Shown: positions 1 to 61,981, counted from the first letter of the stretch. The stretch: 64,000 nucleotides of DNA from Spirochaetota bacterium (GCA_022709405.1 JAKLIV010000004.1:6652-70651), one strand, 5' to 3'. The notes: a model not told the origin generated them from the sequence alone. Numbers and translations: made by a program.

Positions 1-1
1 T

Positions 2-10555: not shown

Positions 10556-10893
10556 GCACTTACGGCAACAGCCCATATGATTACATTGATCTTTTCAAAG
10601 ATCGTTTACTCTATGTCGGCAAGCAATTTGATTCCGAAACCCAGCAAATTGCCGATGCCCGACATGACTTTAACGATGCGGGTTTTACTCTAATCGATGA
10701 GATTAAAAAGATCGATGAAGAAATAATCAAACGAGCTGGAGAATTAGGAAAATATATTCATGATGAAGACCATTATGATGATGAAATGAAATCGTTCTGG
10801 GCCTGGAACCCGGACAAGATCGCTGAAGGGAAGTTTCCCCTTGAAAAGATTCCGGACCACGTCCGTACTCTGGCGAAGGAGCTATATTATTGA
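10552..10893 (+). CDS. Acidic hypothetical protein (113 aa); candidate immunity partner of the MuF C-terminal module
   Basis: ATGA overlap with the upstream gene. It is D/E-rich (…YIHDEDHYDDEMKSFW…) and shares the same low-GC composition. Confidence 0.5.
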   Translation: MSTYGNSPYDYIDLFKDRLLYVGKQFDSETQQIADARHDFNDAGFTLIDEIKKIDEEIIKRAGELGKYIHDEDHYDDEMKSFWAWNPDKIAEGKFPLEKIPDHVRTLAKELYY

Positions 10894-32389: not shown

Positions 32390-34051
32390 CTATAAATCTG
32401 TTTTCTCGTCCTTTTTCACTTTCGTTGAAGCCGTATCGGAGCCTAAAAATCGATAGGTGATCCCGATCCCGATCGAGAATATCTTTTCACCGAGCTCTTT
32501 CTCTATCGCATGGTAAACGACGGTGTCAGATGGAGAAACCGTTTTAACGACCGATTTTATCGTTTCCGGGTTGAATATGCAATAGTATCCGCCGACGCTT
32601 ATCGCAAGCCTGTCGTTGGCGACAAATCCGAATCCCAGTCCTATCGTGTGGCTTGTCAGCAAAGGATCGACCTCAGATCGGGCTGATTTCTTGATGCCAG
32701 GGTCGTTGTACGCGTAGCCGACGCTGATTTTCCAGCACTCGATTGGCGCGTATTCGAGGCACCCGCCCACCCTGTATCCGATATTGAAATCGTCTTCCCT
32801 GTTCGAGGATTCATATACTGGAACTGCTACCGGTCCACCGAGAATATAATCGACGACCTTGTAATTTTTATTCATCTTTACATAGGGCCTGAAATACATA
32901 TCGCCCGACACCTCGAACCTGAGCTGTTTGATGATATTGTATGAAAGACCGAATGAAAGCGACTGGGGATAGGTGAGTATCAATTTTTTGCTTCCCCTGG
33001 CGCCATAGTATACCCTGCCGTCCTCCATGGTGTTTCCGGAACCGTCTTTGAAAATATCGAGCTGCCCGCTGCCCTCGATATTCGTCGGGGCCATAAACTT
33101 GTTCGTTTTCTTTGTAGCGTTCATGGGCGCATAGTATTCATGCCGGAAAGCAATAAACAGCTTGTCGACTGGCCTGAAATCTATGCTTGTGATAATACCG
33201 AATCCATGCCCGCTATACTCGGTATTGATCTTCCAATCACTCATTCCAACAGAAGTATCATTATTCAAATTCGTTTCAAATGGGGTGTGGTTTGCCGTGG
33301 TAAAGTACGGATTTTTGACCGTTATGGACTGGGCCCCGGTTGCATAGATGTATCTGAGTCCCAGGCCTGCCGAAAGCCATTCAACAATCTTATATGCTGC
33401 GCCGATTGTCGCACCGACGAAGTACTCGGTTCTCACCGCGGTATTGACCTCATACATATAGCTCGCAATAGGATCGGTCGCACCGCTGAGATAGTAAAGT
33501 GTCTCGGCCACGGCCAAGTTACCCCAGTCAACGATCGCGAGGCCTTTGGGATATGTGAAATCAGGAGCGGCCTGCATTACACCCACATGCAGGTAGGTCG
33601 CCCATTCATGGCCCTTCGTGTTTCCGTGATATGCAACGCAAAGGTCCGGCAGTATTGGCGCCGTCACCTCGGCATAGTAGCTGTTGCTGCCATCTATACC
33701 GCCGGTAGCTCTGTTAGTCAAAAATCCGCCCTGACTGCTGAGCGTATGCTGAAATCCAGTTGTGTAACCTTCTACATTCAATCCAGTGTAATCCATTGAA
33801 TGAAGTCTCTTCTTGTAGTAGGTCTGACTGCTGAACATCACATAAAGCCCGGTCCTTTCTGTAAAGACAATCCCCGCAGGATTATAAAACGCGGCGTCTC
33901 CATCGGTGGAAGCGTTGCGGTTCAAGGTACGCACATATTCTGCGCTGTGGTTGTTGTATATGCCGTCTTCCTGGTGAAGCCGTGAAGCATAAGAACGCCC
34001 GCCTGTAAGAAAAAGAATGATTATCGGAAAAACATAGAAAATTTTTTTCAT
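32390..34051 (-). CDS. Outer-membrane transport protein, OMPP1/FadL/TodX-like
   Basis: It has a signal peptide, the motif …DAAFYNPAGI…, and alternating beta-strand character with a C-terminal aromatic residue pattern. Confidence 0.6.
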   Translation of the reverse strand: MKKIFYVFPIIILFLTGGRSYASRLHQEDGIYNNHSAEYVRTLNRNASTDGDAAFYNPAGIVFTERTGLYVMFSSQTYYKKRLHSMDYTGLNVEGYTTGFQHTLSSQGGFLTNRATGGIDGSNSYYAEVTAPILPDLCVAYHGNTKGHEWATYLHVGVMQAAPDFTYPKGLAIVDWGNLAVAETLYYLSGATDPIASYMYEVNTAVRTEYFVGATIGAAYKIVEWLSAGLGLRYIYATGAQSITVKNPYFTTANHTPFETNLNNDTSVGMSDWKINTEYSGHGFGIITSIDFRPVDKLFIAFRHEYYAPMNATKKTNKFMAPTNIEGSGQLDIFKDGSGNTMEDGRVYYGARGSKKLILTYPQSLSFGLSYNIIKQLRFEVSGDMYFRPYVKMNKNYKVVDYILGGPVAVPVYESSNREDDFNIGYRVGGCLEYAPIECWKISVGYAYNDPGIKKSARSEVDPLLTSHTIGLGFGFVANDRLAISVGGYYCIFNPETIKSVVKTVSPSDTVVYHAIEKELGEKIFSIGIGITYRFLGSDTASTKVKKDEKTDL

Positions 34052-34152: not shown

Positions 34153-37100
34153 TCACCACGAATATTCGCTGTATGCGCTATACGTGTGCTTAACGTTCTG
34201 TCTGTTCGTCGCGTCATTGGGCCAGAACCTGTTCACAACATATGATTCGGTATCAACCTTTATATCGCCGTTGTCGACGACATAGTGAATGTAGATCATA
34301 CCCATGAGAACTCCTTCGGCGTTGTAGCAGTTATAGATCCCTCTCTGTGTTCCGTCTTTTGCTAAAACATCGGTGATCCTTCCATTGGCATCGCCGCCAA
34401 CACTCATACCGCCTTCATTGCCCGGCGTATGCCAGTCTGCCGACCAAGACTGATCGTTCTGGGTGCCTGAATACGTGGTGTTGCCGTCGTTGTATGCGTT
34501 ATCGTCGCCGTCGTTCAAGTTCATCCAGTTCCAGGCTCCTGTCGCGGTTCCACAATACTGGCTGGCAGTATCGCTGGTACCCCAGTTGGCATTCAGCCAT
34601 GTTACTGCGTCATCCGCGAGCGTGTTGTTGCAATTGATCGTTCCCCACAGCGCGATATACCAACGCATATTAGCTGAAGAGTTCGTATTGCTGTCGATGT
34701 CTATATCCAGTCCGGTAGTTCTCTCTCCCGAAGGCACAATGGCGAACCACTTGTAGGTCTTTGACATCGTCATCACCCTCGCGTAGAGTCCGTAATACCA
34801 TTCCTCCTCGGTCATGAACTTGACCGTGATGGTATATGTGACCGAGTTGCCGCCGGCATTCGATGCATAGATCGTCAGCGCATTGTCCTGCTTGGGCGTG
34901 AACGTGAGCGTGTTGGTGGCGTTCGTGTACGTCGTGCCGTTGATGTTATAGGACGTCGGACCGTTGTTCGCCGCTATCACCACGGTCAACTGAGTGTTGC
35001 AGGCCAGGTAGGTGTACTGGCTGGTATCTGACGCATTGAACGTCGTCGAATACGTTCCGCTGTCCTTTCTCCATGCGGTCCACAGTTCCATCTGGGTGTT
35101 CGACGTGCTGTTGCCGCGGTACAGCCTGATGGAAGTGATAAGCGGCGGAGCCGGGTTCACCGTGAGCGATACCGAGTTGCTGTTCAGACCGCTGTACGAT
35201 GCCCTTATGTTCGTCGTGCCTCCGCTTCCCGATACACCGGTTGCTAGGCCGGTATTCGCTCCGATCGTGGCCGCAGACGTATTGGAAGAAGTCCATGTCG
35301 ATGTCGTGGTCACGTTCCCGGTGCTGCCGTTTTGATACGTTACAGTCGCCGTAAACTGAAGAGTGGCGCCGCCGTTTATCGCGGACGGGCTTGTCGGGGT
35401 GATGGCAAGCGAAACCGGATCGTTCGTGACTGTTAGCAATGAAGTGTCGCTCGTCAGGCTGCTATAGTTAGCAGTAATATTCGACGTTCCTATTGCTGAA
35501 CACGATGCGAGACCGCCCGAAGAACCATCGGTGATCGTTGCAACAGTGGTGTTCGACGATGACCAGTCTGCCGCGGTTGTCACGGTAGCCGTATCCCCGC
35601 TTGCATAACTGACGACTGCAGCATACTGCTGGGTCGTTCCGAGCACCTTGGTCGCTGAATTCGGGGAAATATCGAGTGAAACCGGCGGGTCTATGACCGT
35701 AAGCACCGCGGTGTTGCTCGAAATCCCGCTGTAAGCTGCGGTGATATTGGTCGTACCTCCGCTCACGTCGTTCACGCCAGTCGCAAGACCGCCTGACGCA
35801 CCATCGGTGATCGTCGCAACCCCTGTATTCGATGATGACCAGTCAACATTTGATGTCAGGTTCGCCGTATCGCTGCTTGCATATGTTCCGGTCGCCGTAA
35901 ACTGAAGCGTTTTCGGGGTAACGCTCAGATCGATGCTTCCCGTGGTCGGGGTTACCGCGATGCTTCTCAGGGGGTCATTGACCGTGAGAGTCGATGAATC
36001 GCTTGTTACTCCGCTGAGGCTTGCAGTGATCGTCGTAGTGCCGTTGTTGACTCCGTCGGCGAGTCCGCCTGATGCGCCGTCGCTGATCGTGGCGACGCCG
36101 GTGTTCGACGATGACCAGTCGACCGTCGTCGTGATCGTCGCAGTCGACGCATCCGCGTAAGTTCCTGTCGCGCTGTACTGCTGAGTCCCGTCCGCGTCTA
36201 TTGTCGCCGAATTCGGGGAAATATCGATGCTCCTGAGCGGATTCGTCACCGTGAGCGATGCCGAATTGCTGGTCAGGCCTGCGAATGTTGCGGTAATGGT
36301 CGTTGAGCCGGCCCCGCCGCCATCTGCAAGCCCGCTTGTATTGATTGTCGCAGCACTGGTATTCGACGAATGCCATTCTACTGAATCCGTCATGTCTGCA
36401 GTGCTCGAATCGTCATAAGTGACAAGCGCCGTATACTGCTGTGTTTCATCGGCAGCTATTGATGTGTTAGTCGGAGTTATTGCAACCGACTCCGGTTCCG
36501 CCGCTTCGTGATCAACGGTGAGCACCGCTGTATCGCTGTTTATCCCGCTCAGCGAAGCGCTGATATTCGTCGATCCTTCCAGAGAGTATGCGGTTGCGAG
36601 CCCGCCTGATGCTCCATCGATGATCGTCGCAATACCGGTATTCGACGATGTCCAGTCGACCGATGACGTCAGGTTGGCAATATCCCCGCTGGAATAGGTT
36701 CCGTTTGCGGTAAACTGCTGCGTCTCTCCATAATCAAGTGTCGCCGAGTTCGGGCTGATGTCTATGCTTCTCAGGGGGTCGTTGACCGTAAGAGCGGCGG
36801 TATCGCTTATTATCCCGCTGAAAGATGCCGTAATGTTCGTTGTTCCGTCATTAACAGCATCGGCCAGTCCGCTCGTGTTTATCGTCGCCACGGTTCCCGC
36901 CGAGGAGCTCCATGTTACGGATCCGGTAAGATCAGCCGTATCGCCGCTGGCATACACTCCCTGCGCCGCATACTGCCGGGTTTCATCCGCATTAATCGTT
37001 GCGCTGTCTGGCGAAATATCAATCGATCGCAAAGGATCGTTTACTGTAAGACTCGACGAATTGCTGTTTATCCCGCTGTATGTCGCCGTAATCGTTGTCG

Positions 37101-38757
37101 AGCCGTTATTTACCCCTTCAGCGAGTCCATCCGGGTCTATGGTCGCCACGGTCGGCTGAGATGATGTCCAGGTTACCGACGATGTCATGTCCATGTCGCT
37201 GCCGTCGTTGAAATGGACCGTGGCGCTGTATTGCCGCGAACCGTCTGCGTCTATCGTGGCGCTTGCAGGCGATATTGTCACGCTTTCGGGCTGTTCTGTC
37301 GCTCCGACAATTACCGACGCTTCGTTACTCGTCACTCCGTCAAGTGCAGCGGTTATGTACGCTGAGCCTTCATCCTCCGCGGTCGCAAGCCCGTTGCCGT
37401 CGATTGTTGCAATGGAATCGTTCGAAGAATCCCATACAACCGACGAAGTGATCGTCGCCGAATCGCCGCTGGCATACGTTCCCTGTGCGGAGAACTGCCC
37501 GGTTGTCGGTCCTGAATATATATCGAGATTAATCGTTGATGGCGCAACAACGATTGAGACCAGCGGATCATCCACCGATAGAGATATATCGTTGCTGGTT
37601 ACACCGTTATATGATGCCGTAATACTGCTCGTTCCGTTATTGACCCCTGTTGCAAGGCCGCTCGGGTCAATCGTCGCGACTCCTGTGTTTGATGAGTGCC
37701 ATGCGACTGCCCCTGTCATTACAGAACTACCGCCACCGATGAAATAGACCGTTGCCGTGAATTGGGTCGTATCACCGGCATCTATTTCATCATCTTCGGA
37801 GGAGATCGCTACGCTTTCAACGTTCGGTTCAACCACCGTGACTTCAGGAGAATTGTCGCTCGTAATGGTCGCTCCATCAATATCGACATCCGCATATATA
37901 TCGCATGTCCCTTCGATTGAAGGATTTGCTTCAGCGAGGCCTGATGAATCAATTTCGACAAGATCCTCATCGGTACTATACCAGTTGACGACCGCTGTTG
38001 CGTTACCGGTATCGCCGCTCGCATAGGTGGCGGTCGCAGTGAATTGCTGTGTTCCGCCGAATTGAATCGTCGCGCTTGCCGGCGATATGGCTAAAGATCT
38101 GATCGGGTCTTCAACGGTAAGGGTCGCTTCAGCGTTTATCCCCTGCATCGATGCCCTGATTGTCGTACTGCCGTCGTTAACACCGTCAGCCAGTCCGTCT
38201 TCATTGATCGTCGCCACTGCCGGGGCGCTTGAATACCAGGTTACCTGATCGGTAATGTCGACGCCGTTATTTCCGTCTGCAAAATCCCCGCGTGCGATGA
38301 ATTGGATTTCATCGTCAGCGTCAATGGTCCCTGTTTCCGGTTCAATAACGAGATCTACAAGAACATTTGAAGGGTCGAGAACATCAATAGACGCTGTTCC
38401 GGTGAAGGATTTATATTTAGCTTGTATAGTGACAGATCCTTCGGTCGCAGGGCTTGCGGTTACCAGACCGTCTGTGTCAACTGTTGCTACGTCTATATCT
38501 GAAGAATCCCATGCAACCTCGTCGCTGACATCGGTCGATGTGCTGTTGCTCCACTGTGCTGTCGCAGAAAGCTGTACGGTCTCATCGAAAGACAGTACTG
38601 CCGATACCGGTGTCACTGAAACACCTGTCAGGGTTGGATTATTGGGATTGTCTGAAAAATCAACCCCATCTCCGGTTGTTCCAGAGCATCCCTGGAATAG
38701 AAGGAATGCAGCATTACACAGAAACAAAATGATCATCATGGAAATTCTTCTTTTCAT
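34153..38757 (-). CDS. Giant surface lipoprotein with 13 Big_2 (bacterial Ig-like) repeats and a 328-aa non-repeat C-terminal domain
   Basis: MKRRISMMIILFLCNAAFLLFQGC has a lipobox. There are 13 repeat units of type …V.W.SSNT.VATI…GLA.GVN.GTT.ITAS..G..S….LTV.DP. GAGGAG lies before ATG 38757. Confidence 0.85.
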   Translation of the reverse strand: MKRRISMMIILFLCNAAFLLFQGCSGTTGDGVDFSDNPNNPTLTGVSVTPVSAVLSFDETVQLSATAQWSNSTSTDVSDEVAWDSSDIDVATVDTDGLVTASPATEGSVTIQAKYKSFTGTASIDVLDPSNVLVDLVIEPETGTIDADDEIQFIARGDFADGNNGVDITDQVTWYSSAPAVATINEDGLADGVNDGSTTIRASMQGINAEATLTVEDPIRSLAISPASATIQFGGTQQFTATATYASGDTGNATAVVNWYSTDEDLVEIDSSGLAEANPSIEGTCDIYADVDIDGATITSDNSPEVTVVEPNVESVAISSEDDEIDAGDTTQFTATVYFIGGGSSVMTGAVAWHSSNTGVATIDPSGLATGVNNGTSSITASYNGVTSNDISLSVDDPLVSIVVAPSTINLDIYSGPTTGQFSAQGTYASGDSATITSSVVWDSSNDSIATIDGNGLATAEDEGSAYITAALDGVTSNEASVIVGATEQPESVTISPASATIDADGSRQYSATVHFNDGSDMDMTSSVTWTSSQPTVATIDPDGLAEGVNNGSTTITATYSGINSNSSSLTVNDPLRSIDISPDSATINADETRQYAAQGVYASGDTADLTGSVTWSSSAGTVATINTSGLADAVNDGTTNITASFSGIISDTAALTVNDPLRSIDISPNSATLDYGETQQFTANGTYSSGDIANLTSSVDWTSSNTGIATIIDGASGGLATAYSLEGSTNISASLSGINSDTAVLTVDHEAAEPESVAITPTNTSIAADETQQYTALVTYDDSSTADMTDSVEWHSSNTSAATINTSGLADGGGAGSTTITATFAGLTSNSASLTVTNPLRSIDISPNSATIDADGTQQYSATGTYADASTATITTTVDWSSSNTGVATISDGASGGLADGVNNGTTTITASLSGVTSDSSTLTVNDPLRSIAVTPTTGSIDLSVTPKTLQFTATGTYASSDTANLTSNVDWSSSNTGVATITDGASGGLATGVNDVSGGTTNITAAYSGISSNTAVLTVIDPPVSLDISPNSATKVLGTTQQYAAVVSYASGDTATVTTAADWSSSNTTVATITDGSSGGLASCSAIGTSNITANYSSLTSDTSLLTVTNDPVSLAITPTSPSAINGGATLQFTATVTYQNGSTGNVTTTSTWTSSNTSAATIGANTGLATGVSGSGGTTNIRASYSGLNSNSVSLTVNPAPPLITSIRLYRGNSTSNTQMELWTAWRKDSGTYSTTFNASDTSQYTYLACNTQLTVVIAANNGPTSYNINGTTYTNATNTLTFTPKQDNALTIYASNAGGNSVTYTITVKFMTEEEWYYGLYARVMTMSKTYKWFAIVPSGERTTGLDIDIDSNTNSSANMRWYIALWGTINCNNTLADDAVTWLNANWGTSDTASQYCGTATGAWNWMNLNDGDDNAYNDGNTTYSGTQNDQSWSADWHTPGNEGGMSVGGDANGRITDVLAKDGTQRGIYNCYNAEGVLMGMIYIHYVVDNGDIKVDTESYVVNRFWPNDATNRQNVKHTYSAYSEYSW
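35140..38630 (-). repeat. Coding tandem repeat array (13 x ~85-95 codons, Big_2 units)
   Basis: I counted the units in the translation. Some unit junctions are identical at DNA level, e.g. the 17-mer atgcttctcagggggtc at 35960-35976 and 36764-36780. Confidence 0.8.
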
Positions 38758-39036
38758 AACACTCCTCGCACCCTCATTATAAATGGAAAAAATGAAGCCA
38801 TTACCGCTCAGCCTTTCAGACAAAAAATCCTCACATGAGCGCATGGATACACTCAAGCAGTCATGCTACTTGAATTAATTAATCCATGATCCATATGACT
38901 GAATTAAAATCCAACTGGACGGTCTGATTTTGAATTATATTACTGTTGCAGAGAATCCAAATCTACTGTAATCATGATTTTAGAATTCCAATATCATGAT
39001 TAACGTTTGAAAAAGGAGGGGCATGAATCAATAGAA

Positions 39037-48972: not shown

Positions 48973-50898
48973 ATGGGGGCATCCATGGTTAGAAAAGAGA
49001 TTCTTGACCGCTGGACCGTTGAAGACTCCATCGAATTGTACGGAATCAGAAACTGGGGCAAGGGATACTTCAACGTATCACCGGCCGGCGATGTGGTCAT
49101 AACCCCTTTTGACGACAAGTCGATTTCCGTAAGCATCCGGGACATTATCGACGGGATCAGAGAGCGCGGCATGGACATGCCGGTTCTGCTTCGTCTCCAG
49201 AACCTCCTCGACGCACAGATTTCCGAGCTCAACAAGGCTTTTCTCGAAGCCATCGATACCCTGAAATACAAATCGTACTACCGCGGCGTTTATCCGATAA
49301 AGGTAAACCAGCAGCAGCAGATCATCGACGAAATAACCAGATTCGGATCGAAATACCATCATGGACTCGAGGCCGGCAGCAAGGCGGAGCTGATTGCCGC
49401 AATTTCCATGCTCAAGGACCATGATTCCTACATCATATGCAACGGATACAAGGACGTCGAATTCATCGACCTGGGCCTTACCGCGGTTAAAATGGGAATC
49501 AAGTGCTTTTTCGTCATCGAAATGCCCAACGAGCTGTCACTCATCCTCGAGCGATCAGAGGAGATGAAGGTTACGCCGCTTATCGGCGTCAGGCTCAAGC
49601 TCTCTTCAAAGGCCGGTGGCCACTGGAGCGATTCGGGCGGCGACAGAAGCATTTTCGGATTGAACACCACGCAGCTCATACAGGTAATAGATACTCTGCG
49701 CGAAAAGGGCATGCTCGACTGCTTCAAGCTCCTCCACTACCATCTCGGGTCGCAGATACCGAATATACGCGACATACGCTCAGCGGTCATGGAGGCATGC
49801 CGTATTTACGTGGAGCTGGTCAAGGAAGGCGCGGCCATGGGCTATCTCGACCTCGGCGGCGGTCTTGCGGTCGACTATGACGGCTCCAAAACGAATTACA
49901 TGAACAGCATGAACTATTCGCTCATCGAATACTGCCACGACATCGTCGAGGTCATTCAGACCACCTGTGACGACAGCGGCGTCGACCATCCGGTAATCAT
50001 CACCGAATCCGGGCGCGCGACCGTCGCATACTATTCGGTCCTGCTCTTCAACTGCCTGGACAGCGCCCGCTTCGAGGCAATGCCACTGCCCGAAAACGTT
50101 GCTGAAATCGAGCACGAGCAGATCAAGAACCTTTTCGAGGTCCTGCGCTCCGTCAAACCCAAGAACGTGCAGGAGTGCTTCAACGACGCCCTTTACTACC
50201 GCGATGTAATCCACCAGCAGTTCCAGCACGGAGACATCACCCTGCGCGATCGCTCCCTCGCCGAAAAAATATTCTGGAACATCATCAACCTGATCGCCCT
50301 TGAGAAGAACAAGATGAAGCACATCCCGCCCGAACTCGAGGGAATAGACGCCGCCATAGCCGACATCTACTACTGCAATTTCAGCGTGTTCCAGTCTCTG
50401 CCCGATTCATGGGCGATAGGACAGATATTTCCCACCATGCCGGTGCACAGGCTCCACAAATATCCCTGCAGGAACGCAGTGCTGGCCGACATCACCTGCG
50501 ACTGCGACGGGAAGCTCGACCGTTTCTTCAGCGCCAACGAAATCCGCGAATGCATACCGCTGCACGAGCTGACCGATGAAGAATACTACGTAGGCGTTTT
50601 TCTCGTCGGCGCGTACCAGGAAACGCTCGGCGATCTTCACAACCTGATGGGCGACACGAACGTGGTAAGCATCAGGATCAACGAGAAGGGCGATTACGAT
50701 TTCGTCAGGGAAATCGAGGGCGACTCAGTGTCGGACGTGCTCACCTACGTCGAATATAACCCGAAACTGCTTCTCGAACAGTTCAGGGAGAAGGCCGAAA
50801 AGGCCGTTCGCGACGGACTCATCACGGTTTCTGAACGGCGCAGTATCATGAAACTCTTCGAGTCCGGTCTCAACGGTTATACGTATTTCGAAAAATAA
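48973..50898 (+). CDS. speA: Biosynthetic arginine decarboxylase
   Basis: …WTVEDSIELYGIRNWGKGYFNVSPAGDVVI…YRGVYPIKVNQQQ… is the hallmark SpeA N-terminus. Alternative start at ATG 48985. Confidence 0.9.
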   Translation: MGASMVRKEILDRWTVEDSIELYGIRNWGKGYFNVSPAGDVVITPFDDKSISVSIRDIIDGIRERGMDMPVLLRLQNLLDAQISELNKAFLEAIDTLKYKSYYRGVYPIKVNQQQQIIDEITRFGSKYHHGLEAGSKAELIAAISMLKDHDSYIICNGYKDVEFIDLGLTAVKMGIKCFFVIEMPNELSLILERSEEMKVTPLIGVRLKLSSKAGGHWSDSGGDRSIFGLNTTQLIQVIDTLREKGMLDCFKLLHYHLGSQIPNIRDIRSAVMEACRIYVELVKEGAAMGYLDLGGGLAVDYDGSKTNYMNSMNYSLIEYCHDIVEVIQTTCDDSGVDHPVIITESGRATVAYYSVLLFNCLDSARFEAMPLPENVAEIEHEQIKNLFEVLRSVKPKNVQECFNDALYYRDVIHQQFQHGDITLRDRSLAEKIFWNIINLIALEKNKMKHIPPELEGIDAAIADIYYCNFSVFQSLPDSWAIGQIFPTMPVHRLHKYPCRNAVLADITCDCDGKLDRFFSANEIRECIPLHELTDEEYYVGVFLVGAYQETLGDLHNLMGDTNVVSIRINEKGDYDFVREIEGDSVSDVLTYVEYNPKLLLEQFREKAEKAVRDGLITVSERRSIMKLFESGLNGYTYFEK

Positions 50899-50917
50899 TC
50901 ACCCGAGGGAGGTCATA

Positions 50918-52096
50918 ATGTCACGTGTATTGATAATCGGCGCCGGCGGCGTCGGACAGGTCGTTGCACACAAATGCGCTCAGGTCCCGGATGTTTTCAG
51001 CGAAATAATGCTCGCGAGCAGAACCAGGGAAAAATGCGACCGTATCGCGGCCCAGATCAAGCGGCCGATAAAGACCGCGAAGGTCGACGCCGACAACGTC
51101 AAGGAAACCGTCTCCCTCATCCAATCCTTCAAACCGAAACTCGTCATAAACGTCGCACTGCCCTACCAGGACCTGCCTATCATGGATGCATGCCTGGAAA
51201 CCGGGGTCGACTACCTCGACACAGCGAACTACGAGCCCCGCGACGAGGCCAAGTTCTGCTATAAGTGGCAGTGGGAATACCATGAGAGGTTCAAGAAAAA
51301 GGGGATCATGGCCCTTCTGGGAAGCGGATTCGATCCGGGCGTGACCAACGTGTACACCGCGTACGCGAAAAAGCACCACTTCGACGAAATCAGCGAGCTC
51401 GATATCATCGACTGCAACGCGGGAGACCACGGCAAGCCCTTCGCCACCAACTTCAATCCGGAAATAAACATCCGCGAGATAACCCAGCGCGGCAAATACT
51501 GGGAAAACGGAGCCTGGGTCGAAACCGATCCCCTGTCGGTTTCGAAAGTGTACAATTTCCCCGGCGGGATCGGAGACAAGAAAATCTACCTGCTCTACCA
51601 CGAGGAACTGGAATCGCTGGTCAAACATATCCCGACGATAAAGAGGGCGAGGTTCTGGATGACCTTCTCGGACAACTATCTGAAGCACCTCGAAGTGCTG
51701 CAGAACGTGGGGATGACCCGCATCGACCCGGTCATGTTCGAAGGCAAGGAAATCATACCGATACAGTTTCTCAAGGCGCTCCTTCCCGACCCGGCCTCCC
51801 TGGGCCCGCTGACCAGGGGCAAGACCTGCATCGGGTGCGTGGTAAAAGGCGCGAAATCCGGCAGGGAGCGTGAATACTACGTATACAACATCTGCGACCA
51901 CGAGGAGTGTTACCGGGAAGTTCAGTCTCAGGCCATTTCATACACCACCGGCGTTCCCGCCATGATCGGCGGCATGATGATACTCACCGGAGCGTGGAGG
52001 GGCGAAGGCGTGTTCAACATGGAGCAGTTCGATCCCGACCCGTTCATGGACAAACTGAACAAGCACGGACTGCCATGGCAGGAAACATTTTTCTAG
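50918..52096 (+). CDS. Carboxy(nor)spermidine dehydrogenase (saccharopine dehydrogenase family)
   Basis: …VLIIGAGGVGQVVAHK…GSGFDPGVTNVYTAYA…DCNAGDHGKPFATNFNPEINIREI…SQAISYTTGVPA… aligns by eye with Vibrio CASDH. Confidence 0.85.
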   Translation: MSRVLIIGAGGVGQVVAHKCAQVPDVFSEIMLASRTREKCDRIAAQIKRPIKTAKVDADNVKETVSLIQSFKPKLVINVALPYQDLPIMDACLETGVDYLDTANYEPRDEAKFCYKWQWEYHERFKKKGIMALLGSGFDPGVTNVYTAYAKKHHFDEISELDIIDCNAGDHGKPFATNFNPEINIREITQRGKYWENGAWVETDPLSVSKVYNFPGGIGDKKIYLLYHEELESLVKHIPTIKRARFWMTFSDNYLKHLEVLQNVGMTRIDPVMFEGKEIIPIQFLKALLPDPASLGPLTRGKTCIGCVVKGAKSGREREYYVYNICDHEECYREVQSQAISYTTGVPAMIGGMMILTGAWRGEGVFNMEQFDPDPFMDKLNKHGLPWQETFF

Positions 52097-53229
52097 GCCT
52101 TGACATCTCCCGGGTGAACACCCCCTGCTTCATCGTCGACGAGGACTCCCTGAGAAAAAACCTCGAGGTGCTCGCAGGCGTGAAGCGAAGGACCGGGTGC
52201 AGGATACTCCTCGCACTCAAGGCCTTTTCCATGTTCAGCCTGTTCCCCCTCATGCGCGATTACCTGGACGGCGTATGCGCGAGCTCGCCGCACGAGGCGC
52301 GCCTAGGCAGGGAAGAATTCGGGAAGGAAGTGCATTCCTTCGCTGCCGCGTACAGCGACGATGACTTCGCCCAAATTCTGCGCTGGTCCGATCACGTCGT
52401 GTTCAATTCCGGAAACCAGTACCGGCGCTTCAAATCCGATGTCATTTCATCGCCCAAAAAAAAATTCGGGCTGCGGGTGAACCCGGAGGTCTCCCAGGCG
52501 CCGGTTCCCATGTACGACCCATGCGGAAAACATTCACGCCTCGGCATCACCGCATCCGAGTTCGATCCTTCATGCCTTGAAGGCATATCGGGACTGCACT
52601 TTCACGCGCTGTGCGAGGAAAATTCTCCGGCGCTCGAAAAGACCCTGGCCGCGTTCGATCAGCTGTTCGGACGGCACCTTCACGGGCTCGAGTGGGTGAA
52701 TTTCGGAGGGGGCCACCATATCACCAGGGACGATTACGACATCGATCTTTTGTGCTCGCTCATAACCCGCACCGCCGAAAGATACGGCGTCGATGTCTAT
52801 ATCGAACCCGGAGAGGCGGTGGCCCTGAACGCAGGCGTGCTCGCGGCCACGGTTCTCGACGTGATCCGCAACGAGATCGACATTGCGGTCATGGACACGT
52901 CTGCGGCGGCGCACATGCCCGATGTTCTCGAAATGCCGTACCGGCCCGCTATCCCCGGCGCCGGCATGCCCGGAGAACTCCCCTACACGTACCGGCTTGC
53001 TGGGATCTCATGCCTCGCCGGAGACGTCATCGGCGATTATTCGTTCGATAAGCCGCTCAGGCCCGGAGACAGGCTGCTGTTTCTCGACATGGCGCACTAT
53101 TCCATGGTCAAGACAAACACATTCAACGGTATCGGTCTCCCCTCGATCGCGATATGCAGCACGTCAAAAAACGAAATCCGCCTCGTTCGGGAATTCGGCT
53201 ATGCGGATTTCAAGGGAAGGCTTTCATGA
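52075..53229 (+). CDS. nspC: Carboxy(nor)spermidine decarboxylase
   Basis: …TPCFIVDEDSLRKNLEVL…LLALKAFSMFSLFPLMRDYLDG…EPGEAV…SCLAGDVIG…YADFKGRLS matches the NspC pattern. The start overlaps the CASDH 3' end. Confidence 0.85.
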   Translation: MAGNIFLGLDISRVNTPCFIVDEDSLRKNLEVLAGVKRRTGCRILLALKAFSMFSLFPLMRDYLDGVCASSPHEARLGREEFGKEVHSFAAAYSDDDFAQILRWSDHVVFNSGNQYRRFKSDVISSPKKKFGLRVNPEVSQAPVPMYDPCGKHSRLGITASEFDPSCLEGISGLHFHALCEENSPALEKTLAAFDQLFGRHLHGLEWVNFGGGHHITRDDYDIDLLCSLITRTAERYGVDVYIEPGEAVALNAGVLAATVLDVIRNEIDIAVMDTSAAAHMPDVLEMPYRPAIPGAGMPGELPYTYRLAGISCLAGDVIGDYSFDKPLRPGDRLLFLDMAHYSMVKTNTFNGIGLPSIAICSTSKNEIRLVREFGYADFKGRLS

Positions 53230-54104
53230 ACATGATACGCGGCAAATATCCCCCTTTTCTGGGCTCCGAGACCGGCAACGGCCCTGCGGAATCATCGATG
53301 TTCCATGTGATTCCGGTGCCCCTCGAACGCAGCGTGTCGTACGGCGCCGGCGCCAAAAACGGACCGTCCGCCATACTCGCCGCTTCGCAGCAGCTCGAGG
53401 TGTACGACGGCCGCTCAGTTCCGGCTGAAAAGGGGATTCACACCAAAGCCCCGGTCCGGTGCGGCGGCTCCATACTTGAGATACTGGCCCGGATCACCGA
53501 ATCGGTCGCAGACAGCATCCGCAGCCGCGCCATACCGGTAGTACTCGGCGGCGAACACACGGTCACCTGCGGGGTGTTTCCGGCTTTCGCTTCCGTCTGC
53601 CGCGATTTCGGAGTGGTCCAGTTCGACGCCCACGCCGACCTGCGCGATTCTTACGAAGGCGACCCGTACAGCCACGCATCGGCCATGAAACGCGTCGTGG
53701 ATGCCGGCATCCCTCTCTTCCAGATCGGGATAAGAAGCCTTTCACCGCCCGAGGCGGATTACAGACTGAAACGGCGAATCCCCTCGCTCGATGCGGAATT
53801 GCTCGCCCGCCGCGGGATTCCCAGTAAAATTCTTCCGAAATCATTCCCTGAAAACGTCTATATCACGTTCGACATCGATGTGTTCAATCCCGCGCTCGTC
53901 CCTTCGACCGGCACCCCCGAGCCCGGGGGCATCGACTGGTACGCGGCGATGGAGCTGCTCGAAAAAATATGCGTTGAAAGGAATATCGTGGGATTCGACG
54001 TGGTGGAGCTGGCGCCGATAAATAAATTTCACGCGCCCGATTTCACTGCAGCGAGGCTGGTCTACAACCTTATGGGTTTCATCACCCGAAAACTTCGTCC
54101 CTGA
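53226..54104 (+). CDS. speB: Agmatinase (arginase family)
   Basis: Metal-ligand motifs …GGEHTVT…, …DAHADLR… and …ITFDIDVFNPA…GTPEPGG…. ATGA overlap with nspC. Confidence 0.9.
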   Translation: MNMIRGKYPPFLGSETGNGPAESSMFHVIPVPLERSVSYGAGAKNGPSAILAASQQLEVYDGRSVPAEKGIHTKAPVRCGGSILEILARITESVADSIRSRAIPVVLGGEHTVTCGVFPAFASVCRDFGVVQFDAHADLRDSYEGDPYSHASAMKRVVDAGIPLFQIGIRSLSPPEADYRLKRRIPSLDAELLARRGIPSKILPKSFPENVYITFDIDVFNPALVPSTGTPEPGGIDWYAAMELLEKICVERNIVGFDVVELAPINKFHAPDFTAARLVYNLMGFITRKLRP

Positions 54105-55545
54105 GCCGGCTGAAGCTGTTTTTCCCGCAGAGCATCATGCACGCCAGCGGTGCGGCATTTCTCGCCAGCGCGTTCATTTCGGCCGCCGTCTCCCTGATGT
54201 CCCACTGAGCGTGCTCGTCCTCCCTGAGCGAGACCAGGTGATAAAGCTCTCTCGCGTTCAGCTTGAGGACCACCCTCCTCCGGTGCGCGTTCGTGAGAAT
54301 ATAATTCTTTAAATCCGGATACGCTTCTTTTATTCTGGCATAAGTTTCGGCCGATCTGTCCATGGCCTCGCGAAACGGAACTTCCATGTTTACTTCGGTT
54401 ATCGACGGCGGCACCGTAAATCCCAGCGCGGGATCGTAATCCTGAACGATCTGCGTGCTCATCCGGTGCCTCTTCAGCTGTGCGTAATTGCTCGCGCTGA
54501 CCGTCAGCTCATAGGTGAAATCGATCGTTTCGAACGTGCGGTCGACGCTGTTGAAAAACTCCCGTTTCGAAAGAGCCGTCTTGATGATTCGTCTCTTTTC
54601 GCCGTCGTTCATGTTCATCACCGCATCGAGGCATTCCCTGTAGGATTGCCCTGAATACTGGAACACTACAGCCGCGCAGATAACCGCATCCGCATCCGGG
54701 GTGCACGATATCAGCGACACGCTATCGTTTCCGGCATGGCCGTCTCCGGCAGCCGCGAGGTTCAGCTCTCCCGACATTTCGCGGATATCGTCCCTGCGCA
54801 TCGTGTCATAAGCATTAGGCTCTGTAAACTGTATTATCGATGGAGTGAAATTCCCCACTATGCTGAATATGCCGTCCGCCAGCTCGCGCACCTCGGGCAG
54901 CCTGCTCGACCTGAATCGCCGCAGCATGTTTTCCAGAGTGCGGGCGTTTGCCGTCATCCCCATCTGCGACAGGGTCGCCAGGGAAACGACATACCGCGCG
55001 TCCTCCTTTGCCCATCCGTCCACGGTCCTCTCGCCGAGCGGCGTCTTCACCGTTTCGGCGTGCTTGACGAACAGGTGCTTCTTGAGCGCTTCATAGAGCG
55101 CGGAGTACGTTTTATTCTGGAATGCGACCGTTTCGCGGAATTCCCGTTCGATGGGCTCGCCCCTGAATTCTTCGGGCGTGAAATAATCCCCTTCGAGTGT
55201 TATATAGCGCTGCGATTTTTCGGTATAAGAGGCGAGCCTGGCGCGCTGCACCTCCTCCACCGCGAGGCGAGAGAGCCCGATTATATCGAGGTTAAAAACA
55301 GCATGCTCCGCGACCGAATGGTGGCCGAACCCGAATATGATGCGCTCGTTGGATTTTCTCGCGCCGTCGACTTCGGCGCTCGCCACCTGGCGCAGGACCG
55401 ATACGTCGCGCGGATCGCGTGAAATCCTCGCATATGACGCGCTGAGCGTTTCCGGTGTCACGTTGTCGCGGTCCCAGTCCGCCTTTTCCTTGAGTGTTTC
55501 TATGATGTCGGCGTCGACATTGTACCCGGCGAGCAAGACTTTCAT
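54082..55545 (-). CDS. thyX: FAD-dependent thymidylate synthase, tandem-domain ThyX-like (487 aa)
   Basis: First half: …[40 protein letters not shown]…, ThyX-motif-like with RAR in place of RHR. Second half: …[15 protein letters not shown]…. Confidence 0.7.
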
Positions 55546-58083: not shown

Positions 58084-59040
58084 TTAAACTAACGGGCGGG
58101 GAAGTAGACCGCATTTATCGATAATTTCCGGAACCCTGTGTTCCCACTCGACGGCCATGACATGTATTCCGCTTATTCCGTCAGTCTCCCTCAGCTCGCT
58201 TATGATATCACAGCATATTTTAATTCCCTCGTCGCCCGCCTTGCCGCCGGGAGCTGAAGCAAGACAGCGAAAAAACGATTCCGGAATGACGATACCGGGA
58301 ACATTTTGCTGCATATAACGCGCCATCGCAAGGGATTTCAACGGCATGACACCGCCGATAATGAAGCATTTTTCATGAATTCCCAGATCCCTTACCCTGC
58401 GCATGTATTCCCTGAAAGCCTTGACATCATATATGCACTGGGTCTGGATGAACTGGGCTCCTGCATCGATTTTTTTTCTCAGCCGGTAAGGACGGTATTC
58501 AACCGGGTCCGAAAAAGGCGCATCGGCGGCCCCGATAAACAAATCCGGCGCTCCGTCGATTTTTTCGCCGGTATCGGGGAAAACACCCTCATCGCGCATC
58601 GTCCGCAGAATCGAAACAAGCTGTATCGAATCGATGTCATACACCCCTTTACAAAATGGATGGTTTCCGAACATCTGATGATCTCCGCTCAAGCAGAGTA
58701 CGTTTTTTATACCGAGTGCGGCGGCCCCGAGGATGTCGCTCTGCGCGGCGATCCTGTTCCTGTCGCGGGTCACCATCTGCATCACCGGCTCTATTCCCAT
58801 GCGCACGAGCAGCGCAGCCGTGGCGATGCTTGACATGCGGACGATCGCCGTCTGATTATCGGTGACGTTTACCGCATCGACGAACCCGGCAAGGTACGAG
58901 GCTTTTTTCTCGACAATAAGCGGATTATTCCCCTTCGGAGGTCCGAGTTCGGCGGTCACCACAAAGTCCCCGGATCGGCATAATCTCTGCAGTTTTCCGC
59001 TGTTTTCCCCGGCTGTAGAATGTTTCATGTATTCTTTCAT
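58084..59040 (-). CDS. metF: Methylenetetrahydrofolate reductase
   Basis: …FVVTAELGPPKG…VNVTDNQTAIVRMSS…GIKNVLCLSGDH…FIGAADAPF…AGAQFIQTQ… are MTHFR family signatures. Confidence 0.85.
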   Translation of the reverse strand: MKEYMKHSTAGENSGKLQRLCRSGDFVVTAELGPPKGNNPLIVEKKASYLAGFVDAVNVTDNQTAIVRMSSIATAALLVRMGIEPVMQMVTRDRNRIAAQSDILGAAALGIKNVLCLSGDHQMFGNHPFCKGVYDIDSIQLVSILRTMRDEGVFPDTGEKIDGAPDLFIGAADAPFSDPVEYRPYRLRKKIDAGAQFIQTQCIYDVKAFREYMRRVRDLGIHEKCFIIGGVMPLKSLAMARYMQQNVPGIVIPESFFRCLASAPGGKAGDEGIKICCDIISELRETDGISGIHVMAVEWEHRVPEIIDKCGLLPRPLV

Positions 59041-59058
59041 CCGATATTGATCCGCCGA

Positions 59059-59721
59059 TCACTGCTTTTTAAATCCTTTCTGGATCAAGATTCCGGGATT
59101 CTGGTTTTTCCATTGCATGGGCCTGCGTATGGCGTACATGTTTTCAATGCGGTTCTGTTTTTTCAGCCGTTCATAAATCTGGCACCATGCGCACGGGATA
59201 TCCGGATCGACTTCGCATCTGCCGTTTGTGGAGCCCCCGCACGGTCCGTTAAAGATGCCCTTTGCGCATCTTGTAACCGGGCAGATGCCTCCGGTATAAC
59301 CGAGCTGGCAATCGCCGCAGGATCTGCAGTTCTCCTCATACAGGCCGGTTTCCCTGCTGATTCCGACGAATATGGTGTCGAGCGCCGGGAATACCGGTAT
59401 GTCATCGAATTTTTCGGCGAGGAGCTGTGTTCCCGCACCGCAACCCATGGAAACAATGGCGTCGATATTTCTCATGCGCTCCACAAGCTCGAAAATAAAA
59501 ATCGGTTCGCATTGCCTTTCAACGGTATACCCCTTCAGTGCAGCTTCAGTTCCATGTTTCTTCATGTAAAGTGAAAGCTCTTCTTTAAATCGAACGACCT
59601 CCTGATGACCCCCCGCAAGACATACGGCGGTGCATCCGGCGCACCCGACGATCATTATTTTTTGATACGAAGAGGTCAGAGAATAAATATCTTCAAGTTT
59701 TTTTTCCCTGGCTATGATCAT
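59059..59721 (-). CDS. metV: MTHFR-associated Cys-rich subunit (MetV, MTHFR_C domain)
   Basis: …CRSCGDCQLGYTGGICPVTRCAKGIFNGPCGGSTNGRCEVDPDIPCAWCQIYERL… is the MetV signature. ATG 59721 overlaps the cytochrome stop (ATGA). Confidence 0.75.
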   Translation of the reverse strand: MIIAREKKLEDIYSLTSSYQKIMIVGCAGCTAVCLAGGHQEVVRFKEELSLYMKKHGTEAALKGYTVERQCEPIFIFELVERMRNIDAIVSMGCGAGTQLLAEKFDDIPVFPALDTIFVGISRETGLYEENCRSCGDCQLGYTGGICPVTRCAKGIFNGPCGGSTNGRCEVDPDIPCAWCQIYERLKKQNRIENMYAIRRPMQWKNQNPGILIQKGFKKQ

Positions 59722-60137
59722 TTTGTCGCTCCTCTTCTGGGATGGCATCCGGCGCAGAGCCGCGGGCCGGCACTCTTCTCCATCTTTTCATGGCAGCCGA
59801 TACATTGAAGATGATAGGCCTCGGTCAGATTGTATTTTGAATTGCCTGAAAACCCATGGCACGAGGGACACCGGATTGCGTGATTATTTGCAGCCAGATC
59901 ATCGGTATCAAGCGTGTTCCTGCCGTTCTCATAGCGATGGTGGCATTTCATGCAATCATCGACCGCGACCATGTGCTTCTGATGAGGGAAATTCACTCCT
60001 GAACGCTGTTTCGCCGCATAAAACGACCGGTTGTCGATAAACAGATGTTCTTCCTGCGCCGATAAATTTGTAATTATAAAGCCGATGAGTACGATAACAG
60101 CAGATGCCATAAACTTTTTTTTATCCATCAGCATCAT
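59718..60137 (-). CDS. Periplasmic tetrahaem cytochrome c3-type protein
   Basis: It has a signal peptide plus four CxxCH sites (CMKCH, CPSCH, CIGCH, CAGCH) with interspersed His residues. Confidence 0.85.
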   Translation of the reverse strand: MMLMDKKKFMASAVIVLIGFIITNLSAQEEHLFIDNRSFYAAKQRSGVNFPHQKHMVAVDDCMKCHHRYENGRNTLDTDDLAANNHAIRCPSCHGFSGNSKYNLTEAYHLQCIGCHEKMEKSAGPRLCAGCHPRRGATK

Positions 60138-60529
60138 GCCCCCATCGGACTGTCGGCGTAATTTTCACATACACCCTGCGACCTGCAAATCGCTCTTGCC
60201 CAGGCTATAATGGAAGGGATACTGACGCCTATCGGGCACCGGCACTGGCCGCACAGGACACATTTCCCCCATATCAGTGACTTCATTCGATCGAGATCTT
60301 TTGGGGATATTTTTCCCTTTTTTCTGAAAAGCAGTCCCATGGAATTCAGCGCTTTAAATGAAGGCGTCGATTCAGGGTCCTTTGTTTTTTTATAGTAAAA
60401 GCAGGTTCCTGAGCAGAGGCCGCAGGAAACGCAGTTGGACAGCAGAAGTTTTATCTCGATTTTTTCATCCAGCATTCTGTTTATCGCATCCGCGTCAATC
60501 GATATGCGATTTCCCATTACGTCATTCAT
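60134..60529 (-). CDS. 2x[4Fe-4S] ferredoxin-like protein (HdrC / DsrK-N-terminal-like, no CCG domain)
   Basis: Cluster motifs CVSCGLCSGTC and CVLCGQCRCP. GGAAGGAAA lies before ATG 60529. It overlaps both neighbours. Confidence 0.65.
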   Translation of the reverse strand: MNDVMGNRISIDADAINRMLDEKIEIKLLLSNCVSCGLCSGTCFYYKKTKDPESTPSFKALNSMGLLFRKKGKISPKDLDRMKSLIWGKCVLCGQCRCPIGVSIPSIIAWARAICRSQGVCENYADSPMGA

Positions 60530-61253
60530 TGAGTTTCCTTCCCCATTCTCGTGCGTTTCCTGATAAAGAGTGAGTTCCCCGGATGAATAATCGGGAAAAC
60601 ATAAAAAGGATTGCATGCCCCATTCTGGACCAACCGAGCATGACGACAAGAATCTGCGCGCATAGAATGTGCAGAACGATCATTATTTCATATTCCCCCC
60701 TCTGGAAGTAGCACATGAGTCCGGTAACGAAGGGAAGAGATACCGTAATCAAGAGCCCTATTTCTCTCCAGCCGGTTATCGCGCGGACACTGTCGAGCAT
60801 GAACCTTCTGGCAAGCATGATGACAATCATGCCCAGAACGATTAATGTCATAAGGATTATCAACCTATCGTTCAGCCATACAAAGCGGATTCCGAAATAC
60901 TGAAAAACCAATATCGCATGCGCCTGTATAAAAAATGGGACCAGTATCATAAGCAGATGGAAGATGACCGTCACCGCCATTATTGACGGATTTTTATAAA
61001 ACAGCGAATTCTTGAATCTCAGATATAATCGCTCGGTAATGGTGAATTGACGGGAAGCCCAGGCCGTAGATTCCGGACTCCAGCGTATTCTTGTAGAATT
61101 GTTTTCGCCATCCCGATGAGACAGAGCGTATCTCGACGATCGTATCATTCTTAAGCCTTTAAGGATCACGCCTGATCCGGCAATCACGAGCGAAGCGATC
61201 ATCATATATTTGACCAGAAAATCATATACTGAAATAATCGTTATGAAGGTCAT
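60522..61253 (-). CDS. Five-helix integral membrane protein, NarI/DsrM-like (putative dihaem cytochrome b)
   Basis: About five TM helices with His residues inside them (…VIFHLLMILVPFFIQAHAILV…, …VLHILCAQ…, …MGHAILF…). Family assignment is by topology and context only. Confidence 0.45.
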   Translation of the reverse strand: MTFITIISVYDFLVKYMMIASLVIAGSGVILKGLRMIRSSRYALSHRDGENNSTRIRWSPESTAWASRQFTITERLYLRFKNSLFYKNPSIMAVTVIFHLLMILVPFFIQAHAILVFQYFGIRFVWLNDRLIILMTLIVLGMIVIMLARRFMLDSVRAITGWREIGLLITVSLPFVTGLMCYFQRGEYEIMIVLHILCAQILVVMLGWSRMGHAILFMFSRLFIRGTHSLSGNAREWGRKLNE

Positions 61254-61500: not shown

Positions 61501-61671
61501 TTATCTACTGCCCATATGGAGCTTTCTTTCCTGTCTTTTAAGCTCTGATAATTCAGCCAGCAGGTTTCTCAATGTGGAATGCATTCCTTTTTCTTTTGCT
61601 TCCTGGGCTTCTTTCTGTTTCTTTTTAATTTTCACTTCAATCTCGGCGAGATTTTCGTTTTTTGGATTCAT
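61501..61671 (-). CDS. Small K/E-rich coiled-coil protein (56 aa)
   Basis: GGAGG lies 6 nt before ATG 61671. Translation is MNPKNENLAEIEVKIKKKQKEAQEAKEKGMHSTLRNLLAELSELKRQERKLHMGSR. Confidence 0.4.
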   Translation of the reverse strand: MNPKNENLAEIEVKIKKKQKEAQEAKEKGMHSTLRNLLAELSELKRQERKLHMGSR

Positions 61672-61947
61672 CATGAACCTCCAAATTTTTGAAATCATTA
61701 ATTATACATAATAATTTAAAAAACGACAAGCATTTTTTCAATTTTCGTCTCGCTTTTGGGATATTATTATACAAAAATTCAACTAAACCATGAGGATTGG
61801 GGATGATTATAAAAATCCCCGCTGGATGTGCCTGCTGAACAGGATGTTCGAATGGCATTTTTTTCAAGCCATCCCAACTTAACTTGCAGGATTGCATCCT
61901 GCAAGCTCTCGAAGCCGTACAGTATGTGCATAAGGCTTCGACCACAT

Positions 61948-61981
61948 GGGAACATCTATAATGTAATTTATAGATGTTCCC
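61948..61981. terminator. 13-bp-stem hairpin abutting the TRAP permease stop codon
   Basis: GGGAACATCTATA (61948-61960) pairs with TATAGATGTTCCC (61969-61981). The T-rich run is on the + side only. Confidence 0.4.

Follow-up and report, generated by a model that had tools for sequence, protein, structure and literature searches.

Near one end of a 64,000-nucleotide stretch of a Spirochaetota genome (GCA_022709405.1, JAKLIV010000004.1:6652-70651; the whole stretch is called the window below), a run of five open reading frames (ORFs) on the minus strand, from 61253 to 58084, encodes a predicted membrane cytochrome b, an iron-sulfur (FeS) protein, a tetrahaem cytochrome c3, MetV and MetF, in that order (Table 1). 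The spirochaete is known as a metagenome-assembled genome (MAG) from digester-type metagenomes. When the sequence was re-read, the five ORFs lay where an earlier note on this DNA had placed them, with the junctions that it had described: the cytochrome b and FeS genes overlap by 8 nt and have ATGAATGA in common, which serves the stop of the one and the start of the other, the FeS/c3 and c3/MetV junctions are 4-nt ATGA overlaps, and 18 nt lie between the MetV stop and the MetF start. These overlaps suggest translational coupling. An Rfam scan of the operon, its leader and the whole window was negative for riboswitches and other RNAs, so that the S-adenosylmethionine- or tetrahydrofolate (THF)-riboswitch signature of a biosynthetic role is absent, and consensus scans of the operon found no convincing internal terminator. 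The assumption of the earlier note that the genes form one unit is supported by the overlaps, by the absence of an internal Rfam element or convincing terminator, and by the conservation of the gene set in other genomes.

Table 1. Predicted genes of the operon and features upstream of it, in window coordinates.
Feature	Position	Strand	Remarks
Dihaem cytochrome b, NarI/TmcC/HmcE family, integral membrane	60522..61253	-	243 aa, five transmembrane helices
2x[4Fe-4S] helical ferredoxin, predicted cytoplasmic	60134..60529	-	131 aa; Pfam Fer4_8/Fer4_17
Tetrahaem cytochrome c3, predicted periplasmic, Sec signal peptide	59718..60137	-	139 aa; PF02085
MetV, FeS subunit of MetVF-type methylene-THF reductase	59059..59721	-	220 aa; PF12225
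MetF, catalytic flavoprotein subunit of methylene-THF reductase	58084..59040	-	318 aa; PF02219
Lys/Glu-rich small ORF	61501..61698	-	65 aa; shorter start 56-59 aa; about 250 nt upstream of the operon
Promoter-like site TTGTCG-17-TATAAT	61701..61729	-	just upstream of the small ORF; consensus match only, 10/12

The last two genes of the operon encode the components expected of a MetVF-type methylene-THF reductase, namely a MetF with the PF02219 TIM barrel and, adjacent to it, a cysteine-rich MetV of family PF12225. MetF covers positions 1-287 of the 287-position PF02219 profile with 127.5 bits (cut-off 24), and MetV scores 122.3 bits against PF12225 (cut-off 23) and has 13 cysteines that are invariant in the alignment. 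Here and below, invariance of haem and cluster ligands refers to 35-39 aligned homologues per protein. A search of solved structures with MetV found no relative. Reduction of methylene-THF, or oxidation of methyl-THF, is the inferred reaction of this pair, whose orthologues adjoin acsE, cdhD and acs in Desulfobacterota.

The membrane protein had no match when its single sequence was scanned against Pfam, and its best NCBIfam matches, to TmcC (NF045723; 114.8 bits against a cut-off of 240) and HmcE (92 bits), do not reach the equivalog cut-offs. When 37 homologues are aligned, four histidines (H99, H112, H195 and H213) are invariant, and cytoplasmic residues in the Arg-rich loops and the C-terminal tail are conserved (R149, R150, R157, R235 and W237). 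In a comparison of the 37-sequence profile with Escherichia coli NarI (E=1.2e-7), these histidines fall on the NarI haem ligands H56, H66, H187 and H205, and H99 with H213 are predicted to bind a haem on the cytoplasmic side, H112 with H195 one on the periplasmic side. The protein has the arrangement of the NarI family, that is, five transmembrane helices with two histidines in helix 2 and two in helix 5; the lysine of the NarI quinone site, K86, has no counterpart in the profile alignment. The AlphaFold2 model of the protein has a predicted local distance difference test (pLDDT) score of 80.6, and the top eight matches of this model in Foldseek are all NarI chains (probability 0.85-1.0, TM-scores 0.36-0.42). 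Arginine- and lysine-rich loops and C-terminal tail indicate the NarI topology, with the N-terminus outside and the C-terminus inside the cell.

The FeS protein contains two cysteine motifs, C33-x2-C-x2-C-x3-C43 and C90-x2-C-x2-C-x-C98-P, whose eight cysteines are invariant in 35 sequences. A ninth cysteine, C115, is not essential because it is replaced by leucine in a Desulfobacterota relative (locus L013). Only parts of the Tmc, Hmc and Dsr subunit models are matched: positions 23-138 of the 430 of TmcB (70.2 bits, cut-off 735), positions 35-152 of the 457 of HmcF, and the N-terminal part of DsrK (32.8 bits, cut-off 400). Because the match is confined to about the first 150 positions of these models, the protein lacks a CCG domain, and a search for PF02754 (CCG) in it gave no match. 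Judged by these partial matches, the FeS protein is the N-terminal ferredoxin half of TmcB, HmcF and DsrK. Its model (pLDDT 82.6) finds HdrC (7bkb_C) as the best fold match, with a probability of 0.87 and an E value of 0.42. In two lineages, 42% identical to each other, cytochrome b and FeS protein are fused into one polypeptide of 372 or 375 aa (L022 at 3180-4298, and protein P0236), and the fusions carry the FeS part on the cytoplasmic C-terminus of cytochrome b. In L022, which has no c3 gene, the fusion gene lies directly between acsE and metV. We also considered whether the FeS protein and MetV together represent a split TmcB, with MetV corresponding to the CCG half; this was rejected, since MetV, aligned by hhalign with a TmcB-like protein of full length, reached a probability of 0.6% and thus shows no homology.

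The third protein has the features by which class III cytochromes c are recognised, four CxxCH sites with bis-histidine ligation within some 110-130 residues. It scores 39.7 bits against PF02085 (cut-off 22.9), and its best NCBIfam match is TmcA (NF045722; 86.6 bits, below the equivalog cut-off of 114). The four CxxCH sites and the further histidines H52, H55, H67 and H109, the distal ligands, are invariant in the alignment. The profile of this family found HmcA (1h29, E=1.7e-28) and the acidic type II c3 (3cao, 1.3e-15), both ahead of type I c3, suggesting that the protein is closest to the TmcA/HmcA-like, type II kind. A location of c3 outside and of the FeS protein inside the cytoplasmic membrane is supported by the signal peptide, by the positive-inside loops and by the C-terminal b::FeS fusions.

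The earlier note had proposed a survey of other genomes for this gene order, and such a survey found the gene set well beyond this genome and across phyla, which decisively contradicts the condition, a gene order confined to this genome, under which the note would have given up its proposal. A metagenome scan seeded with the FeS motifs alone yielded 286 relatives, and the counts of gene order were made on 80 loci that were kept; their FeS proteins fall into 51 clusters at 90% identity and into 17 at 70%. Counting only the loci in which each position could be tested, the cytochrome b gene is upstream of the FeS gene in 70/70, metV follows the FeS gene within 1.5 kb in 53/53, and c3 lies between the two in 47 of these 53, including every spirochaete-type locus. 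The metF gene is directly upstream of cytochrome b in 31 of 37 loci, and ACS/CdhD/AcsE genes are upstream in 11 of 26, a count limited by the length of the flanks. Relatives in which the FeS protein is 56-96% identical have the order b-FeS-c3-metV(-metF) (L006, L007 and L008), and a different Spirochaetota MAG (L009) has b-FeS-c3-metV-metF. The latter was the sole GTDB representative in a strict FeS-motif scan of genome contigs, which found no cultured host. Desulfobacterota MAGs found through the profile of the membrane protein (L010, L013 and L014) have acs-cdhD-acsE-metF-b-FeS-c3-metV. Only four matches were found when the FeS protein was searched as a single sequence, but the idea of a rare family was discarded as a limitation of the word index, since profile searches gave 54 cytochrome b homologues and, at E<=1e-10, 1039 clusters of FeS proteins at 90% identity. 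The same five genes occur together in hundreds of environmental bacteria; uncultured Desulfobacterota carry them widely, and Spirochaetota from digesters have them too.

In the Desulfobacterota loci (L010, L013, L014 and many of L026-L095) there come, downstream of the module, a second metF, a gene for a PAS histidine kinase and then genes for HdrC-, HdrB- and giant HdrA-like proteins. The two MetFs that flank the module are about 38% identical to each other, and three loci (L028, L032 and L048) have an additional metV-metF pair upstream. The MetF of the window has a mean identity of 57% to the Desulfobacterota MetF encoded immediately upstream of cytochrome b versus 34% to the downstream MetF2, and its MetV a mean of 51% to the module-linked Desulfobacterota MetVs versus 40% to their second MetV paralogue. 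Since both match the module-linked copies and not the paralogues, the five genes have been co-inherited as one orthologous set, within which metF has evidently moved from the front of the module in Desulfobacterota to its back in spirochaetes. A spirochaete locus with FlaA nearby (L021) also encodes, at 7966-8835 on the minus strand, a canonical MetF of 289 aa (312 bits to PF02219), whose gene converges on the metF of the module. This suggests that the module does not simply encode the biosynthetic reductase. Two kinds of methylene-THF reductase (MTHFR) thus stand side by side in this locus.

We consider it likely that the five genes encode a single membrane-bound methylene-THF reductase, or methyl-THF dehydrogenase, which moves electrons between the periplasm (or the quinone pool) and the folate couple. 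This is close to what the earlier note had put forward, a Tmc/Hmc/DsrMK-style conduit with MetVF as its cytoplasmic partner. The conduit part fits a NarI/TmcC-like cytochrome b with four haem histidines, a ferredoxin half of the TmcB type, an HmcA-like c3 and the topology signals. The partnership with MetVF, as far as sequence goes, agrees with the presence of metV in all 53 loci, with metF and metV flanking the other genes in Desulfobacterota, and with orthology across phyla. The proposed path would begin at the four bis-histidine haems c of the periplasmic c3, continue over the two haems b of the NarI-type cytochrome across the membrane to the cytoplasmic 2x[4Fe-4S] ferredoxin-like subunit, and lead through the FeS clusters of MetV, on which we infer that this subunit docks, and the flavin of MetF to the methylene-THF/methyl-THF couple. 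MetVF would thereby take the place of the CCG, or disulfide-reducing, catalytic module of TmcB, DsrK and HdrD.

The midpoint potentials (E0') of the couples are about -200 mV for methylene-/methyl-THF, -414 mV for H2 and -74 mV for menaquinone. The step would be electrogenic because electrons cross the membrane while protons are released and consumed on its opposite sides. In the reductive direction, periplasmic oxidation of H2 or formate could deliver electrons through c3 to methylene-THF, a redox loop that would build a proton-motive force. If the step ran oxidatively, the membrane potential could push electrons from methyl-THF to low-potential periplasmic cytochromes and a hydrogenase or formate dehydrogenase, which would meet the need of syntrophic acetate or methyl oxidisers and of complete-oxidising sulfate reducers; this direction could equally feed the periplasmic cytochrome pool of sulfate reducers.

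Several observations weigh against this interpretation. The TM-scores of the cytochrome b fold matches are modest, the fold search with the FeS protein gave just the weak match to HdrC, and the scores for TmcA, TmcB and TmcC are all below the equivalog cut-offs. Fusions of the FeS protein with MetV were sought among the longer FeS-domain proteins and none was found, the architectures there being b::FeS, those with a CCG domain and unrelated ones. Within the 64-kb window there are no genes for the Wood-Ljungdahl pathway, for a hydrogenase or formate dehydrogenase, for quinones or for the maturation of cytochrome c. On the 11-kb contig L005 the b-FeS-c3 genes (8964-10857) are followed by an ArsC/LMWP-like gene and there is no metVF; it is the only relative without metV after b-FeS-c3, and either its module may pass electrons to a different cytoplasmic acceptor or a rearrangement may have altered the locus. 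A cyclic-nucleotide (cNMP)-binding metallo-beta-lactamase protein is encoded divergently upstream in L005. Finally, c3 is missing between the FeS gene and metV in ten loci (L022, L025, L030, L057, L060, L061, L062, L069, L079 and L093), six of which fall among the 53 scored for MetV and c3.

The trio without metVF in L005, the lack of Wood-Ljungdahl genes in the window and the resemblance of the FeS protein to a truncated TmcB are what one might expect if the first three genes were a decayed or independent Tmc/DsrMK-like remnant beside an ordinary soluble biosynthetic MetVF, with no functional link between them. We regard this explanation as very improbable. A remnant would not be expected to keep cytochrome b in 70/70 and MetV in 53/53 loci across 17 deep FeS lineages, at least two phyla and differing gene orders, the short form of the FeS protein is a family of more than 1000 clusters, and the overlapping genes suggest translational coupling. 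All haem and cluster ligands are invariant, which indicates purifying selection and not decay. The arrangement is far from what chance would produce, and the survey contradicts the case that the earlier note had named as fatal to its proposal, that the FeS and membrane genes are what is left of a dsrMK or hdrDE locus.

The loci without an intervening c3 lead to a different question, namely whether the complex is the same and its true membrane partner is the quinone pool, with cytochrome b oxidising or reducing menaquinol like NarI or DsrM and c3 acting as an accessory entry or exit. Proteins of the NarI family, to which cytochrome b is homologous, are classically quinol oxidases, and about ten loci, b::FeS fusions included, have a core of cytochrome b, FeS protein, MetV and MetF without c3. 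From these loci it follows that the invariant core is formed by these four proteins and that c3 is not obligatory. In four of them (L025, L057, L060 and L062) a cytochrome-c3-like sequence is encoded after metV instead; that of L025 (6145-8853) belongs to a 902-aa protein with an N-terminus that is c3-like by tblastn and a Fer4_11 domain, reminiscent of HmcA plus HmcB or of DsrJ/O. The periplasmic cytochrome is exchangeable, a parallel to DsrMK and DsrMKJOP. A quinone partner is nevertheless unlikely for the module as a whole: c3 is present in 47 of 53 loci and in every spirochaete-type locus, the lysine of the NarI quinone site has no counterpart, and by textbook potentials the transfer from menaquinol (-74 mV) to methylene-THF (-200 mV) would be uphill and, in the NarI geometry, against the membrane potential, while the reverse would waste energy. 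A quinol-linked mode, which is the main rival of the chain through c3, may be the rule in the variants that lack c3.

A further possibility is that the module serves a bifurcating or confurcating, flavin-based enzyme of the MetFV-HdrABC type as its missing second partner, instead of forming a linear chain to MetVF. The HdrC-, HdrB- (CCG) and giant HdrA-like genes of the Desulfobacterota loci, 1.5-3.5 kb downstream of metV, would fit this proposal, as would the fact that the second acceptor of the HdrABC-MvhD-MetFV complex of Moorella is not known (PMC8578096). However, these hdr genes are set apart from metV by the histidine kinase and often by the second metF too, and no hdr or mvhD gene was found in the operon or the rest of the 64-kb window, nor in the spirochaete loci L009, L017, L018 and L021. 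A bifurcating arrangement therefore appears improbable, although it may apply in Desulfobacterota, and we prefer the linear membrane-bound chain.

The closest known systems to the first three genes are Tmc (TmcABCD of Desulfovibrio vulgaris) and Hmc. The best NCBIfam matches of the trio are TmcC, TmcB and TmcA, the architecture in three layers is shared, with a type II-like tetrahaem c3 in the periplasm, a NarI-like cytochrome b in the membrane and an FeS protein in the cytoplasm, and the job is presumably the same, the transfer of electrons between the periplasmic cytochrome pool and the cytoplasm. The FeS subunit of the module differs from TmcB in that the CCG domains, which form the catalytic thiol/disulfide site, are absent. 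There is also no TmcD, since the overlapping operon holds no further ORF and the 65-aa upstream peptide is unrelated, the gene order is C-B-A and not A-B-C-D, and the cytoplasmic partner encoded with the module is MetVF and not a DsrC-type substrate. No score reaches its equivalog cut-off, and the proteins are related to Tmc without being members of it. With DsrMK, HdrDE and NarGHI the module shares a dihaem cytochrome b with four conserved histidines in helices 2 and 5 and a cytoplasmic dicluster ferredoxin domain docking on it, and the b::FeS-fused variants without c3 resemble a minimal DsrMK. It lacks the catalytic CCG domain of DsrK and HdrD and the dsrJOP/dsrC context of DsrMK(JOP), no dsr genes being found near the operon. 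Unlike NarGHI, it has no molybdoenzyme and does not conserve the quinone-site lysine, and its catalytic module is a folate reductase.

On the cytoplasmic side, a MetF of PF02219 and a MetV of PF12225 side by side are also found in the acetogen enzymes (Clostridium ljungdahlii MetVF, Acetobacterium woodii RnfC2-MetVF and Moorella HdrABC-MvhD-MetVF), and in relatives such a pair stands within Wood-Ljungdahl clusters. The MetVF types described so far are all soluble, with ferredoxin, NADH/RnfC2 or Hdr-MvhD as partners and no transmembrane or haem subunit (PMC8760232, PMC8578096), whereas the operon described here adds an integral cytochrome b and a periplasmic cytochrome c. The set of hdrA, hdrB, hdrC and mvhD with metVF known from Moorella and Sporomusa was not found in the operon or the rest of the window, and HdrC/B/A-like genes occur only in the Desulfobacterota relatives. 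The reductive direction of the module follows the same concept as the chain from H2 to methylene-THF proposed for Sporomusa ovata, a chemiosmotic chain with periplasmic oxidation, a membrane cytochrome b and MetVF as the terminal acceptor (Kremp, Roth and Muller 2022, PMC9430772). For S. ovata the connection has been inferred to run via HdrCBA-MvhD, whose subunits all lack transmembrane helices, and a gene dedicated to a membrane anchor is not known there (PMC9430772), whereas in the module the anchor and the cytochromes share an operon with metVF.

Reviews have stated that neither biochemistry nor genomes gave evidence of a membrane-bound MTHFR (PMC8578096, a 2021 review; PMC9430772). A full-text search of the literature, with most subscription journals outside its scope, found no description of a b-FeS-c3-MetVF complex, in line with the impression recorded in the earlier note that no complex of such composition has been characterised. 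The genome paper of Desulfobacterium autotrophicum HRM2 contains an unexplained label 'MetF-ABC' and two 'TmcBCA' clusters, and since its text and supplements do not show whether these are the same module, the module may have been noticed informally before. The Tmc2 of Desulfococcus multivorans was considered as a representative of the module and rejected, as its full-length 50-kDa TmcB rules this out. Judged by its components, the predicted complex is a new composite built from known modules. We somewhat favour the idea that it stands for a fifth, respiratory class of MTHFR, an integral-membrane assembly of b and c cytochromes, FeS protein and MetVF that would turn the methylene-THF/methyl-THF step of the Wood-Ljungdahl pathway into a site of chemiosmotic coupling or reverse electron transport.

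The physiological electron partner of MetVF-type enzymes is still debated. If our interpretation is true, the operon supplies the membrane link of MTHFR that has been sought for decades in the bioenergetics of acetogens, sulfate reducers and syntrophic acetate oxidisers, and it offers a concrete, purifiable molecular candidate for the hypothesis of a membrane-bound MTHFR. It would also predict an energetic balancing of this step in complete-oxidising sulfate reducers, in syntrophic acetate or methyl oxidisers and in some acetogen-like spirochaetes. Present annotations of the module's proteins read 'nitrate reductase gamma subunit', 'Fe-S oxidoreductase' or 'HdrC', and the combination of a short TmcB-like FeS protein, a NarI-like cytochrome b, c3 and MetV could serve as a marker set for annotation.

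Upstream of the operon, the small Lys/Glu-rich ORF (Table 1) has no match in a Pfam scan, and it is also called as a gene in L001-L004, L006 and L008. In a different Spirochaetota lineage (L009, L016 and L017) it is 75% identical, while cytochrome b there is only 39% and the FeS protein 57% identical. It may be co-transcribed with the operon, and its product could be a regulator, an assembly factor or a member of the operon. A TRAP transporter is encoded further along, and it was considered as part of the system and rejected, since only close relatives among the spirochaetes keep the adjacency and L018 and L021 lack it. Directly after the stop of the TRAP DctQM gene, at 61948-61981, lies a perfect 14-bp inverted repeat, GGGAACATCTATAA...TTATAGATGTTCCC. 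It resembles a terminator only when read on the plus strand, on which no gene ends here, and it may act as an operator or as a terminator in both directions.

Besides the TRAP transporter, the remainder of the window encodes a methyl-accepting chemotaxis protein (MCP), a ThyX with two domains, HisG and a polyamine cluster, and it contains a prophage of the myovirus type. The prophage or phage-derived region, at 6216-26853 on the plus strand and probably extending over about 3000-28400, encodes a terminase large subunit, a portal and minor head fusion, a head maturation protease, major head, tail sheath and tape measure proteins, a baseplate wedge and a tail fibre. It is followed by a Dam-type N6-adenine methyltransferase gene (27598-28362), and at the left edge of the window (1-4000) the G+C content is lower, at 36-39%. 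A 1567-aa protein with 11 Big_2 immunoglobulin-like repeats (34153-38856, minus strand) adjoins a FadL/TodX-type outer-membrane channel (32390-34051) and a DUF1302 protein (29913-31283). The polyamine cluster (48973-54104) comprises a biosynthetic arginine decarboxylase (48973-50898), a carboxynorspermidine-decarboxylase-like, pyridoxal phosphate-dependent enzyme (51907-53229) and an agmatinase-like ORF (53154-54104), the last two with a 76-nt overlap as listed, with provisional starts. ThyX (54082-55545, minus strand) has 487 aa and two Thy1 stretches and is apparently a tandem-domain fusion; this enzyme consumes methylene-THF, and its gene is on the same strand as metF, two genes downstream, with the MCP gene between them.

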